64,000 nt of DNA from an uncultured Actinomycetes bacterium (GTDB lineage Bacteria > Actinomycetota > Acidimicrobiia > Acidimicrobiales > AC-9), in assembly GCA_963717645.1 (NCBI GenBank), contig CAVQWQ010000034.1:256232-320231 (forward strand), given 5' to 3'. A model generated the notes under the pieces. It did no database searches. It had not been told where the DNA came from and saw only the letters and a program-made list of their open reading frames with translations. Shown one piece after another: positions 1,241 to 52,673 of the stretch. Position 1 is the stretch's first letter; every line of letters begins with the position of its first letter. The translations under genes were made by a program, and so were the position numbers.

Positions 1241-1795
1241 ATGGGACTTCGCACCAGGCTTCTGTCGGCGGGCGTAGTCGTGGCGGGAGCACCGTCGATC
1301 TACAAGGCCGCAGTTCGATTGCTGATTCGCCGAAACATTCGGTCGATGAACCAAGGGAACTACAGGCCCGTACTCGCAATGTTCTCCAAAGACGCTGAGC
1401 TCACGTTCCCCGGAGACAACTCATGGTCCCGGCAGTACCGCGTCCCGCGGGCGAGCCGCGAGCCGTTCCCGACTCACCGGGGCCGAGCAGAGATCGAGAC
1501 ATTCTTGCGTACGTACGTTGACAACGGCATCCAGATGGAGGTGGAGGACATTCTCGTGGACGGCCCCCCGTGGAATACCCGGGTGGCCGTTCGGGTCCAC
1601 GATTGGATCCGAGGCGCTGACGGGAGCGACATCTACGCGAACCGTGCAGTGCTCATGGTTCACACCTCCTGGGGGAAGATCCGGAGTCAAGAGGACTACG
1701 AGGACTCGGAGCGAGCCGCGGCCCTCGACCGCCACCTCGCCGCTGTACCAGGCGCACATGAACGGAGAGATGAGGTCGAAAGGAGGCGGCCATGA
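1241..1795 (+). CDS. SnoaL/NTF2-like domain protein
   Basis: ATG at 1241 preceded by GGAAGGAG RBS. Sequence YRPVLAMFSKDAELTFPGD is typical of SnoaL-like proteins. The TGA stop overlaps the next start (ATGA). Confidence 0.55.
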   Translation: MGLRTRLLSAGVVVAGAPSIYKAAVRLLIRRNIRSMNQGNYRPVLAMFSKDAELTFPGDNSWSRQYRVPRASREPFPTHRGRAEIETFLRTYVDNGIQMEVEDILVDGPPWNTRVAVRVHDWIRGADGSDIYANRAVLMVHTSWGKIRSQEDYEDSERAAALDRHLAAVPGAHERRDEVERRRP

Positions 1796-2319
1796 TCGAG
1801 AGCGGTGAGCTGCTCATCGACGCCTTCGACAGGGTGCGTGGCGTCGTTCACGCCGTCGTCGAAGGCCTCACGCCCGATCAGCTAGAGTATCGGATCGATG
1901 ACACGGCCAACTCGATCGCCTGGTTGGTGTGGCATCTGACGCGCATCCAGGACGATCACGTCGCCGACATTGCAGGCGAGCAGCAGGTGTGGACGTCACA
2001 GGGTTGGGCAGAGCGGCTGGGGTTGCCCTTCGACGACTCGGCGACGGGCTACGGGGATGGGCCGGATGACGTGGCAGCGGTCAGCGTGGACTCGGGTGAT
2101 CTGCTGGCCGCATACCACGATGCCGTACACGAGCAGACGCGGCGCTATCTGGAGCGGCTGACCCCCACCGATCTCGGTCGCATCGTGGACGATTCGTGGG
2201 ATCCGCCGGTGTCACTCCGTGTCCGGCTGGTGAGCGTCATCACTGACGGTCTCCAGCATGCCGGGCAAGCGGCCTTCGTCCGGGGGGTTGGGCAGCGCCG
2301 ACGATGGAGACAGTCTTGA
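1792..2319 (+). CDS. DinB_2 / mycothiol-dependent maleylpyruvate-isomerase N-terminal-like metal-binding protein
   Basis: WLVWHLTRIQDDHVADIAG matches the DinB/MDMPI N-terminal four-helix pattern. 4-nt overlap with the upstream gene. Confidence 0.55.
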   Translation: MIESGELLIDAFDRVRGVVHAVVEGLTPDQLEYRIDDTANSIAWLVWHLTRIQDDHVADIAGEQQVWTSQGWAERLGLPFDDSATGYGDGPDDVAAVSVDSGDLLAAYHDAVHEQTRRYLERLTPTDLGRIVDDSWDPPVSLRVRLVSVITDGLQHAGQAAFVRGVGQRRRWRQS

Positions 2320-2417: not shown

Positions 2418-2639
2418 ATGGACGAGTCGGTCGCCTGCCCGGTCTGTGGGATCGAAGCGGCCGACCTTGCGGCCCTCGCCGCCCATCTGGTGGAGCGGGC
2501 CGAGGTGAGCGACGCTACCCACGTCATGTGGCTCAACCGCAACGCCACCAAGCAGCGTACATCGGCCAGCGAGCTCGAGTTGCTGCTCGCCCATCCCTTG
2601 GCCGATGGAGGGTCGTCGAGTGACAGGATCCGGCGATGA
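2418..2639 (+). CDS. Small (73 aa) hypothetical protein with N-terminal CPVCG(x12)H...H zinc-ribbon-like motif. First gene of a three-gene unit.
   Basis: High GC3 and clean ORF. ATGA overlap with the downstream PqqC-like gene. Confidence 0.5.
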   Translation: MDESVACPVCGIEAADLAALAAHLVERAEVSDATHVMWLNRNATKQRTSASELELLLAHPLADGGSSSDRIRR

Positions 2640-3388
2640 GCGAGGCGATGGCGCGCCGGGTGGAAGAGGCAGTGGTCGACGGATGGTTCCGAGACCCGCC
2701 CCCGCTGATCGCCGCCATGGCGTCCGAGCCGACGCTGGGTGTTACCCGAGCCTTCGTTCTGCAATGGACGAAGTTCTCGCGATTGTTCCCGCGCTGGGTC
2801 GGGGCCATCATCTCGAACTGTCCCGAGTTCGCGGTCGTGGCCTACGAAGTCGAGAACCTCATGTCAGAGGTCGTGCGTGACCCGGCCGGCGACGACAACC
2901 ACTACGAGCTGCTGATCCGGCTGGGGGAAAGCGTCGGTCTCACCCGCGCCGACATCGAGGACCACCCAGTGTTGACAGAGGCGTCAGAGGCGTTCGGCTG
3001 GCTGTGGGAGAAGGCCCGCGATCCGGACTGGCTCGTCGGCTTCACCGCCATCAACGGGTTGGAGATCCTGGGCGATCGCAACCTGCCGCTGAAGTACGGG
3101 GTAGGAGCGGGTACGGGCCTGGCGCCCGAACCGTACGCCGAGGCGCTCGGTCTGGGAGAGGCCAGCCTGGAGTTCTTCGAGGTGAGCGATGAAGCCGATG
3201 CGGGCCATGGGCACGATACGGTCGAGATCATCGCCCACTACACACCGGGCGGACGCCAAGGCGACATCCTGGCGGTGCTCATCGAATCGATGGCGCGGCT
3301 GCGCCGAATGATGAACGCCGTGTGGGATCTGGCGATGGAGATCGATGTTGGGCTGAGAGCGGAGGCGAGGACCGATGGCCAAGGGTGA
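2636..3388 (+). CDS. PqqC/TenA-family protein with heme-oxygenase-like fold (iron-containing redox enzyme family)
   Basis: ISNCPEF matches PqqC ANCPD. IRLGESVGLTRADI matches PqqC LRLGEAVGLSRDDL. Acidic/His-rich EADAGHGHD segment. About 250 aa, as expected for the family. Confidence 0.6.
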   Translation: MSEAMARRVEEAVVDGWFRDPPPLIAAMASEPTLGVTRAFVLQWTKFSRLFPRWVGAIISNCPEFAVVAYEVENLMSEVVRDPAGDDNHYELLIRLGESVGLTRADIEDHPVLTEASEAFGWLWEKARDPDWLVGFTAINGLEILGDRNLPLKYGVGAGTGLAPEPYAEALGLGEASLEFFEVSDEADAGHGHDTVEIIAHYTPGGRQGDILAVLIESMARLRRMMNAVWDLAMEIDVGLRAEARTDGQG

Positions 3389-3680
3389 TCCCTGTGCCCT
3401 GTGCGGATCCACCTGGGGAGACGTCGACGACGAGGTCGGCGACCACTGGTACCACTTCTGTTGAAACCTCTGAGCTGACGCCTTCGCCAACCTGGTCGCT
3501 GCCATCGAGCAGCGTCTCGGTGGAGGCGTCGTCGTCCGGTCGGACGACGTCGAGGGAAACGAGGTCAGCGGCGCGGCGTGGCTGCACGACGGCGGTGGCC
3601 AGCAGCGCGGCTTCGTCGCGCTCTTCACCGACGACGGCGAGGTCCTCAGATGCTCGGTCGAGGGCACTGCGGCCGATTAG
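3375..3680 (+). other. Small Cys-rich ORF (MAKGDPCALCGSTWGDVDDEVGDHWYHFC-UGA-NL-UGA-ADAFANLVAAIEQRLGGGVVVRSDDVEGNEV...AAD) with two in-frame TGA codons. It could be a readthrough or selenocysteine candidate, or a nonsense-inactivated pseudogene.
   Basis: One continuous 102-codon frame with GC3 >80% on both sides of the TGAs (3462-3464 and 3471-3473). No canonical start downstream of the second TGA. The ATG at 3375 overlaps the PqqC-like stop by 14 nt. Confidence 0.35.
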
Positions 3681-3735
3681 CGCAGCTGCGCACCCCATCC
3701 GGGCCAATGGCTGCAGTAGGGCAACTGCAGCCCCC

Positions 3736-5361
3736 TCACACCCGGGGACTTTCCGCCCAGGTCCCGAACACGTCCGCGAGGGTGGTGACAATCTCACCGA
3801 GGGTTGCTCGGACGCGTACGGCCTCGACGATGGTGGGCATGAGGTTGGTCTCGGCCGACGAGGCCTCTCGGCTCAGCTGAGCCAGGGCCCGCCGCACGGC
3901 ATCGGGGTCGCGAGACCGGCGGACCTGATCGAGGCGCTTGCGCTGGATCTCCTCGCACTCGGGCCCGATGGACAGGATCGTAGGTGGACCCTCGTCGCCC
4001 TCGGTGTAGGCATTGACTCCCACCACGATCCGTCGCCCGTCGGCCAGACGGCGCTCCAACTGGTAGGCGGCCTCGGCGATCTCGGACTGGAACCACCCGC
4101 GCTCGATCCCCTGCAGCACCCCGGCGAGGATCGACCCGCTGCCGAGGTCCAGCAGGTGGGCGAACACCTCCTCGGCCTGGCGCTCGACCTCGTTGGTGAG
4201 GTGCTCGACGTACCACGAGCCGCCAAGCGGGTCGGCTACGTTGGCCACCCCGGTCTCGTGGGCGACGACCTGCTGGGTCCGCAGCGCGATTCGAGCCGCG
4301 CTGTCGGTGGGGAGGGCGAGGGCCTCGTCGTAGGCGTCTGTGTGGAGGCTCTGGGTGCCACCCAGGACGCCGGAGAGGGCCTGGAGGGCCACCCGGCCGA
4401 TGTTGACCTCGGGCTGCTGGGCGGTGAGGGAGACCCCGGCGGTCTGGGTGTGGAAGCGCAGCTGTTGTGAGCGGGGATCCTGGGCACCGTAGCGGTCACG
4501 GAGCCAGTGGGCCCAGATGCGCCGCGCGGCCCGGTACTTGGCGACCTCCTCGAAGAAGTCGCTGTGGGCGTTGAAGAAGAACGACAGCCTCGGAGCGAAG
4601 TCGTCGACTGACCCACCGCGGTCCCGAACCGCCTCCACGTAGGCGAAGCCGTTCGCAAGGGTGAAGGCCAGCTCCTGCACCGCGGTCGAGCCCGCCTCCC
4701 GGATGTGGTAGCCCGAGACCGACACAGGGTGCCAGCGGGGCATCTCGGCGGCGCAGAACCTGACCACGTCAGCCACCAGGCGAACCGACGGCTCGGGCGG
4801 GAAGATGTACTCCTTCTGGGCCTGGTACTCCTTGAGGATGTCGTTCTGAATGGTGCCGCCCAGGAGACGCCGCGAGGTGCCCGCCTCCTCGGCGGCCACG
4901 AGGTACATGGCCAGCAGCATGGGTGCCGGGGAGTTGACCGTCATCGAGGTGGTCACAGACGACAGGCCGATGCCGGCAAAAAGGTCGGCGACGTCTTCGA
5001 CGGTGTCAACCGCCACACCGCCTCGGCCGACCTCACCCAGGCTCCGGGGGTCGTCCGAGTCGCGGCCCATGAGCGTCGGGAGATCGAAGGCGGTGGACAG
5101 TCCCGTCTGGCCACCCCGCAGCAGCTCGTGGAATCGGGCATTTGTGTCCTCGGGCGTTCCATAGCCCGCGAACATGCGCATCGTCCACAGCTTCGAGCGG
5201 TACATCGAGGCGTACGGACCGCGGGTGTAGGGCCACTCACCGGGCCATTCGCCCTCGTCCGGCCCGTAAGCGGCATCGACGGGTACACCTGACAGGGTGG
5301 CGAACTCCTCGTCGCGAAGCGATGCCTTGGCGACGGCGTCTTCCCACTCGGCTCGGCCCAT
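3736..5361 (-). CDS. Methylmalonyl-CoA mutase family, catalytic (TIM-barrel) subunit without a B12-binding domain
   Basis: 541 aa. Sequence [42 protein letters not shown] is strongly conserved in the MCM/ICM alpha N-terminal domain. No C-terminal DxHxxG B12 domain. Confidence 0.85.
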
Positions 5362-5394: not shown

Positions 5395-5913
5395 CTAGCG
5401 GCCTCCGCTCGGAAAGTCCCCAGCTCCCACGCGCAGTTGCCGAACCACCGTTGTGAGCCGGCGAGCCTCTGCATCATTAAGGCCTTCCAATCCGAATCGC
5501 GCGGCACCGAGTGCTGCTGTGGCCCGCTCGACCAGACGCCGGCCGGCGGGTGAGATTCGGGCGAGGACGGTGCGCCCATCGGCCGGGTCTCCAGTCCGCC
5601 GGACGAGGCCTTGCGACTCGAGGCGATCGACCGCGTTCGTCACGCTCGTCGGGTGCACCATGAGCCGGGCGCCCATCTTCCCGATGGGAAGGGCCCCAGT
5701 ACGGCTGAGGTACAGCAGCGTCAGAGCCTCGTAGCGGGCGAAGGTCAAGCCGAACTCCTTGAGAACGCCGTCCACCCGGGCCTGGGCAATCTGCTGGGCC
5801 CGCATGATCGAGGTAGCGGCGGCCATGGCGTCGGCCGCCTCCCACCCCTGTTCGGTCCAGTGGCTATGTGCTTCGGCGATGGCGTCGAACGACAGAGAGG
5901 CACTCGTTCCCAC
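5395..5913 (-). CDS. MarR-family transcriptional regulator (start approximate; GTG candidate)
   Basis: FGLTFARYEALTLLYLSRTGALPIGKMGARLMVHPTSVTNAVDRLESQGLVRR is a winged-helix MarR core. Directly upstream of the mutase on the same strand. Confidence 0.65.
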   Translation of the reverse strand: MGTSASLSFDAIAEAHSHWTEQGWEAADAMAAATSIMRAQQIAQARVDGVLKEFGLTFARYEALTLLYLSRTGALPIGKMGARLMVHPTSVTNAVDRLESQGLVRRTGDPADGRTVLARISPAGRRLVERATAALGAARFGLEGLNDAEARRLTTVVRQLRVGAGDFPSGGR

Positions 5914-6086
5914 ACACCGACCATACACGCTTGGGGGGCCTGACGAGCTGGAGGGGAGCGGCCTGCACCTGGACAGGCCCACGCACGGAGCGGGCGGCAA
6001 ACGTCCTTTTTGCCCTCCTTGCGGAGGAGTATCACCAGGCACTCCGGCCCTTCGCGGTGAATCGCACCCACGTCAGCCGGTACGCC

Positions 6087-52009: not shown

Positions 52010-52309
52010 TCATCCTGGAACGTCTTCGTCCGCTCCGGTTCGGCCAATCGTGTCGAGCGCGTGGGCCACGATGTGGTCATCGTCCATGTGGCAGGCGGCA
52101 TTCAGTCGGGTCGAGCCGCAGACCAGGATTGCTCGGCCTGAGCTTGGTCCCAGATGAAGACCCACCGTTTCGATCGCCTTGCCGTCCCGCATGTGTGACA
52201 CCCACGTCTCGTTGCCCTCCAATGTCTTCCCATCTCATTCAAAGGAGAAGTGCAGGAGGGCCACGACGTGCTCATCGTTGCCCACCACGTCTTGGATGGT
52301 CACCTTCAT
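52010..52309 (-). pseudogene. NTF2/SnoaL-like gene interrupted by a single in-frame TGA (MKVTIQDVVGNDEHVVALLHFSFE-UGA-DGKTLEGNETWVSHMRDGKAIE...)
   Basis: Minus-strand ORFs 52235..52540 and 52010..52222 are in the same frame, separated only by TGA at 52232-52234. Trp at that position gives the SnoaL-like FSFEWDGK. Confidence 0.4.
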
Positions 52310-52673
52310 CGAGTCACGAGTCGCCTGCGCAGATTGCATCAGAAGGGCGTAGGCCGTATCACGCCCTTGGTGACTCCCGCTCACCCAACTCTGACCAGGA
52401 CACATGTGGAGCACTGCATCGGGTGTGCTTCTCGCGGCGATCGACAATGATGACAGCACAAGCGGAACCACGAACGGTTGTTGACGGCCCGTCAGGTGCG
52501 GGGCCGGCGGTGCAGGGACCACGACCCAACATGGAACCACCCACTTCTGTCGGAAACTGCGAAGCCCGCCGGCCGTGCACTAGCGCATCCGGCCGTCACC
52601 CACGCACGCGGTGAGTCGTCCGGTGGCAACGGTCATTGAGGAGCACAACGCACGAGTTCGCCGGGTCGCTGTC

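Follow-up and report, generated by a model that had tools for sequence, protein, structure and literature searches.

A small reading frame interrupted by two in-frame TGA codons, on the forward strand of a 64-kb stretch of DNA (the whole stretch analysed, hereafter the window) from an Acidimicrobiales-like actinobacterium, is best read, with fairly high confidence, as an unannotated selenoprotein gene of the Ta0938 family (Pfam PF11494), in which selenocysteine (Sec, U) takes the place of two conserved cysteines. Conservation of both codons, their alignment with Cys in homologues, homology of the sequence that follows them, and a structured RNA downstream support this reading, while the biochemical function of the protein is inferred only. 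We found no annotation or description of this family as a selenoprotein in the sources checked: a 2026 review that lists 119 prokaryotic families does not mention PF11494, Ta0938, CCxxC, UUxxU or CUxxU, and literature searches on Ta0938, PF11494, 2FQH, 4LQX, SSO2700 and DUF5810 found nothing relevant. Gene callers split the gene everywhere, and a library of 1.84 billion proteins holds only 37-79-aa fragments of it. With two or three Sec in five residues, the family would join the small subset of prokaryotic selenoprotein families that have two or three Sec residues, and it occurs in a lineage (soil and sediment Acidimicrobiales) whose selenium use is little described.

A three-gene locus with two in-frame UGA codons

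The locus comprises three overlapping genes on the forward strand. Gene 1 (2418-2639) encodes 73 residues and gene 2 (2636-3388) encodes 250, with an ATGA start/stop overlap between them, while gene 3 (3375-3680) is a 101-codon frame that overlaps the end of gene 2 by 14 nt and terminates at a TAG (3678-3680). A Shine-Dalgarno-like GGAGG (3361-3365) lies 9 nt upstream of the gene 3 ATG, inside the end of gene 2, as expected for translational coupling, and purine-rich GGAGG or GAGGAG is also present in L006 and L007, two of the related loci. The in-frame TGAs of gene 3, at 3462-3464 and 3471-3473, occur in the context HFC*NL*ADAF. The initial annotation had reported this arrangement, and its observation holds, all of its coordinates being correct. 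Loss of the third-position GC signal on re-analysis had been named there as an argument against a functional unit, but GC3 is 0.79 before and 0.85 after the TGAs, against 0.83-0.84 in the two neighbouring genes (GC2 is about 0.47). No ORF of at least 40 residues with an ATG, GTG or TTG start begins after the second TGA in that frame. Nor is the genetic code reassigned (UGA as Trp or Gly), since TGA ends 22 of 29 long, high-GC3 ORFs in the window, including genes 1 and 2.

The interpretation offered in the initial annotation is only partly supported. That the three genes are a real functional unit, and that the UGAs may be selenocysteine codons in a UxxU motif, are supported, whereas the alternative of a WxxW gene killed by TGG-to-TGA transitions is refuted, and the analogy with peptide modification by PqqC, resting in part on a PqqA-like Glu/Tyr motif (DDEVGDHWY) in the small ORF, is not supported. 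This motif is not conserved, the Tyr being Phe in several orthologues, and the small ORF is a folded Ta0938-type domain rather than a precursor-like peptide, so that the idea of a PqqA-like substrate was rejected.

Conservation of UGA at cysteine positions

When read through, the gene 3 product matches PF11494 end to end, with 44.2-45.0 bits (gathering cut-off 27) over residues 6-91 on profile positions 3-87 of 92, against 20 bits for the N-terminal piece alone. In the alignment to the solved structure of Ta0938 from Thermoplasma acidophilum (PDB 2FQH), F-C-C-D-I-C-A faces F-C-U-N-L-U-A, and both TGAs fall on Cys; the cluster residues of the window protein are C7, C10, C29, U30 (3462-3464, the second Cys of the CCxxC motif) and U33 (3471-3473, the last). 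An hhalign comparison of the parts downstream of the TGAs with the C-terminal halves of Cys-type homologues gives E 9.8e-6, colinear over 58 columns. The window protein and Ta0938 share the same domain from end to end, the CALCG-TWGD motif, the CCxxC column pattern, the C-terminal beta/alpha part and the same neighbouring genes (L051 is the Thermoplasma locus), at a sequence identity of about 30-37%. Ta0938 and the other archaeal-type members nonetheless use Cys at all five positions, while the window protein would have Sec at two of them.

Which residue orthologues carry at the two positions had been singled out in advance as the telling comparison, TGG at both, with no Sec machinery in the genome, being the outcome expected of a plain pseudogene. 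We searched with patterns lying outside the TGA columns, so that the sample is unbiased. All 21 intact orthologues, from three Acidimicrobiales-type MAGs and more than 13 metagenomes (44-77% identity), keep TGA at both columns, including all three genome hits and all 16 close metagenome hits; carriers include the MAGs behind L005 (DASZKW01), L006 (CAWAEC01, a 737-kb contig) and L007 (JAJPHE01). With the window, TGA is present in 22 of 22 sequences at both columns, a recurrence far beyond chance. The preceding column (3459-3461; columns 10-12 of the nucleotide alignment), a TGT codon for Cys29 in the window, is TGA in 13 of the 22, giving UUxxU, and no TAA or TAG appears in 57 occurrences. Seventeen distant Cys-type homologues, mostly archaeal, carry CCxxC; homologues thus have Cys, not Trp, at both columns.

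Inactivation of a Ta0938-family gene by two point mutations (TGG or TGY to TGA) is therefore very unlikely. In its favour are two stop codons three codons apart, the fact that no Sec machinery was seen locally, one relative (L027) that has lost its C-terminal half, and a dN/dS of 0.71 in the last third of the protein, a value too weak to serve as evidence on its own. Yet the identical TGAs are shared by all 22 sequences, from at least 16 independent samples, with no indels or loss of frame, N-terminal dN/dS is 0.27, the C-terminal half is still homologous to the Cys-type proteins, and a conserved RNA structure is specific to these genes. The divergence among the sequences excludes their being copies of one recently spread dead allele, and conservation has effectively refuted this reading.

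It is also unlikely that UGA is a true stop that yields a 29-residue CxxC...HxC peptide, with the downstream ~65 codons either translated separately from an internal start or left as an untranslated structured 3' region (attenuator or terminator). Gene callers do annotate exactly this, as 29-aa plus 61-64-aa ORFs with GTG, TTG or ATG starts, and the hairpins described below could act as a transcriptional or translational regulator. However, the internal starts are not conserved and the window has none, a peptide ending before the CxxC knuckle would lack two or three of the five cluster residues, and the two halves stay in frame without indels. The second and third TGAs would be pointless after a real stop, yet they are invariant, the Cys/TGA interchange at column 29 is the Sec signature, and the C-terminal half is homologous to the contiguous Ta0938 domain.

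RNA structure downstream of the UGA codons

The range 3465-3560, proposed beforehand as the place to look for a SECIS-like hairpin, does contain a structure, made up of two successive hairpins. Hairpin A (3477-3530, ~54 nt) starts 3 nt after the last UGA, with a lower stem GACGCCUUCGCC / GGUGGAGGCGUC (RNAalifold stem at columns 29-39/70-80) and an upper stem that varies in sequence but forms in each orthologue. Hairpin B (3531-3548) has a 7-bp stem, GUCGUCC/GGACGAC, and an apical loop GGUC (3538-3541) identical to that of E. coli fdhF; it encodes V-V-R-S-D-D, and is the only 8-bp GGUC hairpin in the window. Its core is nearly invariant in 22 of 22 sequences, and the three changes in the stem (in L010 and L015) keep wobble pairs. 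Third-position entropy is 0 over six consecutive codons (GTC GTC CGG TCG GAC GAC), which include four-fold and six-fold degenerate Val, Arg and Ser, against 1.2-1.9 at other conserved Gly, Thr, Ala and Pro codons, and dS is halved in this region (0.40 against 0.89 and 0.74). The two-hairpin fold is the minimum free energy structure in 19 of 22 sequences, one hairpin being shortened or shifted in the other three, and the fold z-score is -3.55 (n=22) against +0.27 (n=17) for the same region of the Cys-type genes, from which hairpin B is absent.

This structural evidence rests on conservation, not covariation. In hairpin A 95.9% of cells are paired, and 97.3% in the test of structural support, but changes are one-sided and wobble-compatible (UA/UG 10:10, GU/GC 12:9), no double compensatory change occurs, and shuffle controls are not significant, a result that leaves covariation support undecided and on which we base no claim. 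Part of the conservation of hairpin B could, moreover, be protein-level or inherited, since one locus, L004, keeps it without the Sec-bearing half. As for the bacterial SECIS consensus (the bSECISearch model as given in PMC13188914), hairpin B conforms in its loop, with G in the first position, and in its stem of at least 4 bp, but not in its distance from the UGAs, 64, 73 and 76 nt, as compared with 18 nt in fdhF and 16-37 nt in the consensus. The loop of hairpin A does lie within range, though its sequence is not conserved and often lacks the G. No Rfam SECIS model hits: a scan of 3300-3750 at E up to 10 returned only chance miRNA and snoRNA matches. The spacing of the proposed signal violates a rule built into SECIS-based predictors, which explains why it would be missed. 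Other in-frame-TGA ORFs and other GGUC hairpins in the window and related loci gave no convincing further selenoprotein candidate, a 14-bp GGUC hairpin in L006 lying in a gene with no TGA.

Proposed selenocysteine decoding

What the sequences establish directly is that the UGAs are conserved and align with Cys, that the sequence beyond them is homologous to the C-terminal half of Ta0938, that a structured and synonymously frozen RNA follows them only in the TGA-bearing genes, and that UGA is otherwise the ordinary stop codon in this genome. That the UGAs are decoded by SelB and Sec-tRNA(Sec), and that hairpin B recruits SelB, is inferred, as is the role of hairpin A as a compact folded spacer, which would place hairpin B about 12 nt (linear path) from the invariant middle UGA, close to the spacing of the E. 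coli fdhF mini-helix, so that one element would serve two or three UGAs lying within 15 nt. In this view the five-cysteine cluster that forms the metal-binding loops of the family, CxxC...CCxxC, has in an Acidimicrobiales-type lineage acquired U30-x-x-U33 as its second knuckle.

The Sec machinery was a further point that the initial annotation had proposed to check. No tRNA-Sec was found by ARAGORN in the window and 22 loci, and tblastn with E. coli SelA, SelB and SelD found nothing in the window or in any of the loci (about 320 kb of related sequence); whole genomes of the carriers were not examined, and the genome's Sec trait is therefore unverified. There is no experimental evidence of selenium incorporation, of the bound metal or of an interaction with the enzyme. 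Sec machinery has been reported in the class Acidimicrobiia (Actinomarina; bioRxiv 10.64898/2026.04.03.716425). A tblastn search of the window with FdhF likewise found nothing, despite a formate/nitrite transporter at 224-1354.

A Sec-independent recoding, in which the hairpins stimulate read-through by a near-cognate or suppressor tRNA (Trp or Cys), or SelB inserts Cys, so that the mature protein carries no selenium, is unlikely but has some points in its favour, namely the non-canonical spacing and the lack of evidence on the Sec machinery, and downstream structures promote read-through in other systems. Against it, conserved TGA aligned with Cys and TGY/TGA interchange are the criteria used to define selenoproteins (PMC13188914), the GGUC loop equals the SelB-contacting loop of fdhF, three consecutive inefficient read-through events would give very low yield, and no reason is apparent to keep TGA rather than TGY if Cys were the product.

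Among prokaryotic selenoproteins with UxxU motifs or several Sec residues, the Sec forms of the FmdB zinc ribbon (TIGR02605), the metal-binding protein NF041115, MbdU (NF045648) and Prx-like UxxU proteins also have Sec in place of the Cys of a CxxC metal-binding or redox knuckle in a small protein, with two or more Sec per chain (PMC13188914). The fold family here is different (PF11494), no NCBIfam model, including these, matches the read-through protein even at E up to 10, and up to three Sec fall within five residues. It is possible, though less likely than not, that the locus exemplifies a distinct class of bacterial SECIS, with a SelB-binding GGUC hairpin 64-76 nt downstream of the UGAs brought into the canonical register by a conserved, folded 54-nt spacer hairpin, and with one element directing insertion of two or three selenocysteines within five residues (U-U-x-x-U). 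The product would then be a metal-(Cys)2(Sec)2-3 centre and the obligate partner of an uncharacterised CADD-like dimetal oxygenase, and the gene offers a compact natural case of how SelB might reach a distant hairpin and serve clustered UGAs.

The neighbouring zinc-finger and CADD-like genes

Gene 1 encodes a single C2H2 zinc-finger protein (CPVC...H...H) that matches Pfam PF16293 (zf-C2H2_9) with 62.8 bits (cut-off 29), as well as DUF5810. Gene 2 encodes a putative dimetal oxygenase of haem-oxygenase fold, which matches PF14518 (Haem_oxygenas_2) with 48.3 bits (cut-off 28.9). A structural-genomics entry of unknown function, PDB 4LQX ('TENA/THI-4 domain-containing protein'), is a true orthologue of the two together: gene 2 gives E 3e-17, gene 1 matches residues 22-74, and the profile E-value is 6e-140, covering both the zinc finger and the haem-oxygenase-fold domain. 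It is, however, one fused chain of 322 residues, and in archaeal-type loci the finger is the N-terminal domain of the enzyme, whereas in the window and all Sec-type loci finger and enzyme are separate, overlapping genes.

The enzyme family is closer to CADD (CT610, PDB 1RCW) and 4-aminobenzoate synthase (8VA9, 9PJ4) than to PqqC. Its profile hits 1RCW and 8VA9 at E 1e-10, and E78, H89, E143, D188 and H191 align with five of the six metal ligands of CADD, but the third His ligand is Gly/Ser (the H174 equivalent is missing), TIGR04305 scores only 38.9 bits against a cut-off of 200, CADD has no zinc-finger or Ta0938 partner, and nothing here shows pABA synthesis. Similarity to PqqC structures is weaker (E 0.014 with the single sequence, 2e-6 with the profile) and covers only part of the domain, no NCBIfam equivalog cut-off is reached, and no conserved neighbours lie beyond the three genes.

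It is inferred, with low confidence, that the Ta0938-like protein is the dedicated partner of the co-transcribed, translationally coupled oxygenase and its zinc-finger module, acting as a rubredoxin-like electron or metal donor through a metal-(Cys)2(Sec)2 or selenide/diselenide centre, in which Sec would lower the redox potential and resist irreversible over-oxidation next to an O2-activating site. The absence of conserved homologues of the small ORFs, which would have argued against a functional unit, was not what we observed. The gene order zinc finger, CADD-like enzyme and Ta0938-like protein is kept in every locus with enough flank, bacterial and archaeal, Sec-type and Cys-type, and forms a module conserved from Thermoplasma and other archaeal-type loci to Actinomycetota, which ties the orphan structures 2FQH and 4LQX together and gives a concrete handle on the function of an uncharacterised CADD-like oxygenase.

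Organization of the locus and the interrupted reading frame

The initial annotation had described three tightly packed genes, the last of them interrupted by two in-frame TGA codons, and this observation held, with all its coordinates exact. Gene 1 spans 2418-2639 (73 aa), and gene 2 spans 2636-3388 (250 aa) and overlaps gene 1 through an ATGA. The third frame starts at an ATG at 3375, 14 nt before the stop of gene 2 and with a GGAGG lying 9 nt upstream of that ATG, and runs for 101 codons to a TAG at 3678-3680, crossing TGA codons at 3462-3464 and 3471-3473 (HFC-TGA-NL-TGA-ADAF). GC3 is 0.79 before and 0.85 after the TGAs, the same as in the neighbouring genes. The window is 67.6% G+C, and TGA ends 22 of its 29 long high-GC3 ORFs, including genes 1 and 2, so that UGA is an ordinary stop codon here. 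The interpretation offered with that observation, a redox or peptide-modifying unit built around a PqqC paralogue and possibly using selenocysteine (Sec), was only partly supported, since our data favour Sec and a genuine three-gene module but provide nothing in support of a link to PQQ.

The third gene belongs to the Ta0938 family

The 29-residue piece before the first TGA gives a sub-threshold hit to Pfam PF11494 (Ta0938), and the 68-residue piece after the second TGA gives none, whereas the read-through product matches PF11494 from end to end (residues 6-91 on profile positions 3-87 of 92, at 44-45 bits against a cut-off of 27). The solved Ta0938 structure (PDB 2FQH) aligns as KSKGCALCGATWGD...FFCCDICAAEF against KGDPCALCGSTWGD...YHFCxNLxADAF, and both TGA codons fall on cysteines of the CCxxC motif. 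When only the parts downstream of the TGA or Cys motif were aligned, profiles of the Sec-type (TGA-bearing) and Cys-type sequences were still colinear over 58 columns (hhalign E 9.8e-6), although dN/dS in the C-terminal third is 0.71. The downstream 67 codons are therefore the C-terminal half of the same domain.

Conservation of the TGA codons among orthologues

Homologues of the third ORF, and the residues they carry at the two TGA positions, had been named in advance as a test of whether the frame is functional or dead, and were examined in two ways. A protein search returned only 61-79-residue fragments that begin just after the TGA region, and their contigs show the same split, with loci L001 and L002 reading HFC-TGA-DL-TGA-ADAF and L003 reading HF-TGA-TGA-DL-TGA-ADAF. 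Genomes and metagenomes were then scanned with peptide patterns that lie N-terminal to the TGA columns, so that the search was unbiased with respect to them. This yielded three species-representative MAGs (Acidimicrobiales, Acidimicrobiaceae and Actinomycetota; L005-L007) and 45 metagenome loci. All 22 intact Sec-type sequences, counting the window and with 44-77% protein identity to it, have TGA at both columns, and 13 of the 22 also have TGA in place of the preceding Cys codon, while the other 9 have TGT or TGC. No TAA or TAG occurs at any of these columns, and there are no indels between the N- and C-halves. One relative, L027 (960-1055), has the N-terminal half and both TGAs, but unrelated sequence follows the second TGA and no C-terminal half is present anywhere on its 2.4-kb contig, which makes it either a decayed copy or a chimeric assembly. 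Seventeen more distant homologues, mostly from low-GC, archaeal-type loci and including the Thermoplasma Ta0938 locus itself (L051), all carry FFCCxxC.

Conserved TGA, alignment with Cys, and Cys/TGA interchange are the criteria used to call selenoproteins (PMC13188914). Base-call error had been raised beforehand as something to rule out, and gene inactivation as the simpler alternative, but sequencing error and a private pseudogene are excluded by the number of independent samples. The Sec machinery, which had likewise been proposed as a check, was sought only locally and not across whole genomes: no tRNA-Sec, SelA, SelB, SelD or FdhF lies in the window or in about 320 kb of related loci, and the only support for Sec use in the lineage is a preprint reporting complete Sec machinery in Actinomarina, of the class Acidimicrobiia (bioRxiv 10.64898/2026.04.03.716425). 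A 2026 review of 119 prokaryotic selenoprotein families (PMC13188914) does not mention PF11494, Ta0938, CCxxC, UUxxU or CUxxU, and a literature search for Ta0938 returned a single, unrelated paper. No NCBIfam model, including those for the UxxU/CU metal-binding selenoproteins, matches the read-through protein, and a library of 1.84 billion protein representatives holds only truncated fragments of it. We regard this as a new, probable selenoprotein family, found through Cys/Sec pairs, with a non-canonical SECIS arrangement.

A conserved RNA structure downstream of the UGA codons

A SECIS-like hairpin just downstream of the UGAs was among the features that the initial annotation had suggested looking for, and a structured element does occur there. 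The codons GTC GTC CGG TCG GAC GAC (window 3531-3548) have zero third-position entropy across the 21 sequences used for the entropy calculation, whereas other conserved Gly, Thr, Ala and Pro codons of the same gene show 1.2-1.9 bits, and synonymous divergence in this stretch is half that of the flanks. RNAalifold and the per-sequence MFE folds agree on two adjacent hairpins. Hairpin A (3477-3530) starts 3 nt after the last UGA and has a lower stem, GACGCCUUCGCC/GGYGNNGGCGUC, and an upper stem that differs in sequence between orthologues but forms in each. Hairpin B (3531-3548) has a 7-bp stem and a GGUC loop, and the three changes found in its stem (in orthologous loci L010 and L015) are non-synonymous yet keep G-U pairs. 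The stretch after the last UGA folds much better than dinucleotide shuffles in the Sec-type genes (mean z -3.55, n=22), but the same stretch of the Cys-type genes does not (mean z +0.27, n=17). There is, however, no double compensatory change and the shuffle control for covariation is not significant, so that the structure is supported by conservation and thermodynamics and not by covariation. The protein motif V-V-R-S-D-D, the translation of the palindromic hairpin B, occurs only in the Sec-type proteins, while the Cys-type proteins have [IV][DE]EL.I at this position, so the RNA element appears to have dictated the protein sequence.

The E. coli fdhF SECIS, which we examined directly, consists of the UGA, 18 nt, and then a GGUC apical loop. 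Here the loop sequence is identical but lies 64, 73 and 76 nt after the three possible UGAs, outside the 16-37 nt of the bacterial consensus (PMC13188914), and no Rfam model hits. It is also unexplained why the identical GUCGUCCGGUCGGACGAC hairpin is retained, without a UGA, in L004 (139-378), a 79-residue homologue of only the C-terminal half that has no Cys/Sec-bearing N-terminal half on its 500-nt contig. We infer that hairpin A is a folded spacer, for if it is skipped the distances become 10, 19 and 22 nt, and the base of hairpin B then lies about 12 nt from the invariant middle UGA, close to the fdhF geometry.

A conserved module with a putative CADD-like oxygenase

Gene 1 encodes a single C2H2 finger (PF16293, 62.8 bits) and gene 2 a haem-oxygenase-fold protein (PF14518, 48.3 bits). 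By tblastn, the finger, the enzyme and the Ta0938-like gene occur in that order in every locus with enough flank, both Sec-type and Cys-type, and nothing else is conserved around them. PDB 4LQX (322 aa, annotated only as a TENA/THI-4 domain protein) contains the finger (residues 22-74) and the enzyme (residues 93-299) in one chain. The two are similarly fused into one ORF of about 300-320 aa in the Cys-type, mostly archaeal-type loci among L023-L051 (for example L023:3269-4231 and L051:5076-5963), whereas in all Sec-type actinobacterial loci they are two overlapping genes.

A profile of the enzyme family hits CADD (1RCW) and 4-aminobenzoate synthase (8VA9) at 1e-10, and PqqC only at 2e-6. CADD has six metal ligands, and E78, H89, E143, D188 and H191 (window numbering), invariant or nearly invariant in the family, align with five of them, while the sixth, a His, is Gly or Ser in this family. 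The identity and numbering of the CADD ligands were not checked in this analysis. The family does not reach the CADD NCBIfam cut-off (38.9 bits against 200), and we view gene 2 as a putative CADD-type dimetal oxygenase that is not a CADD orthologue.

Taken together, the analysis demonstrates a recoded, conserved gene of the Ta0938 family with two to three UGAs, a dedicated RNA structure downstream of them, and tight operonic and translational coupling to a CADD-like enzyme. Beyond this, it is by inference that we propose SelB-dependent Sec insertion directed by hairpin B, with hairpin A acting as a spacer, and a U30-x-x-U33 knuckle that, with C7-x-x-C10 (and C/U29), would form the metal or redox centre. 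That this centre serves the O2-activating enzyme as an electron or metal donor is the most tentative step, which we regard as possible but no more than that.

Other features of the window

A perfect 8-bp inverted repeat, GGCTGCAG(TAGGGCAA)CTGCAGCC, lies at 3709-3732, between the convergent ends of the Ta0938-family gene (3680) and the methylmalonyl-CoA mutase gene (3736); it has no U tract and was not called by the terminator scan. A short ORF on the minus strand at about 52100-52310, MKVTIQDVVGNDEHVVALLHFSFE-TGA-DGKTLEGNETWVSHMRDGKAIETV, has an in-frame TGA at about 52237 with high GC3 on both sides, but has no Pfam hit and no GGUC hairpin following it, and may be a gene fragment or pseudogene. 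The genes neighbouring the module are a formate/nitrite transporter (PF01226; 224-1354, minus strand), a mycothiol S-transferase (NF047843 equivalog, which points to Actinomycetota; 1792-2319, plus strand), a methylmalonyl-CoA mutase large subunit (3736-5361, minus strand) and a MarR regulator (5395-6042, minus strand), none of which is conserved next to the module in other loci.
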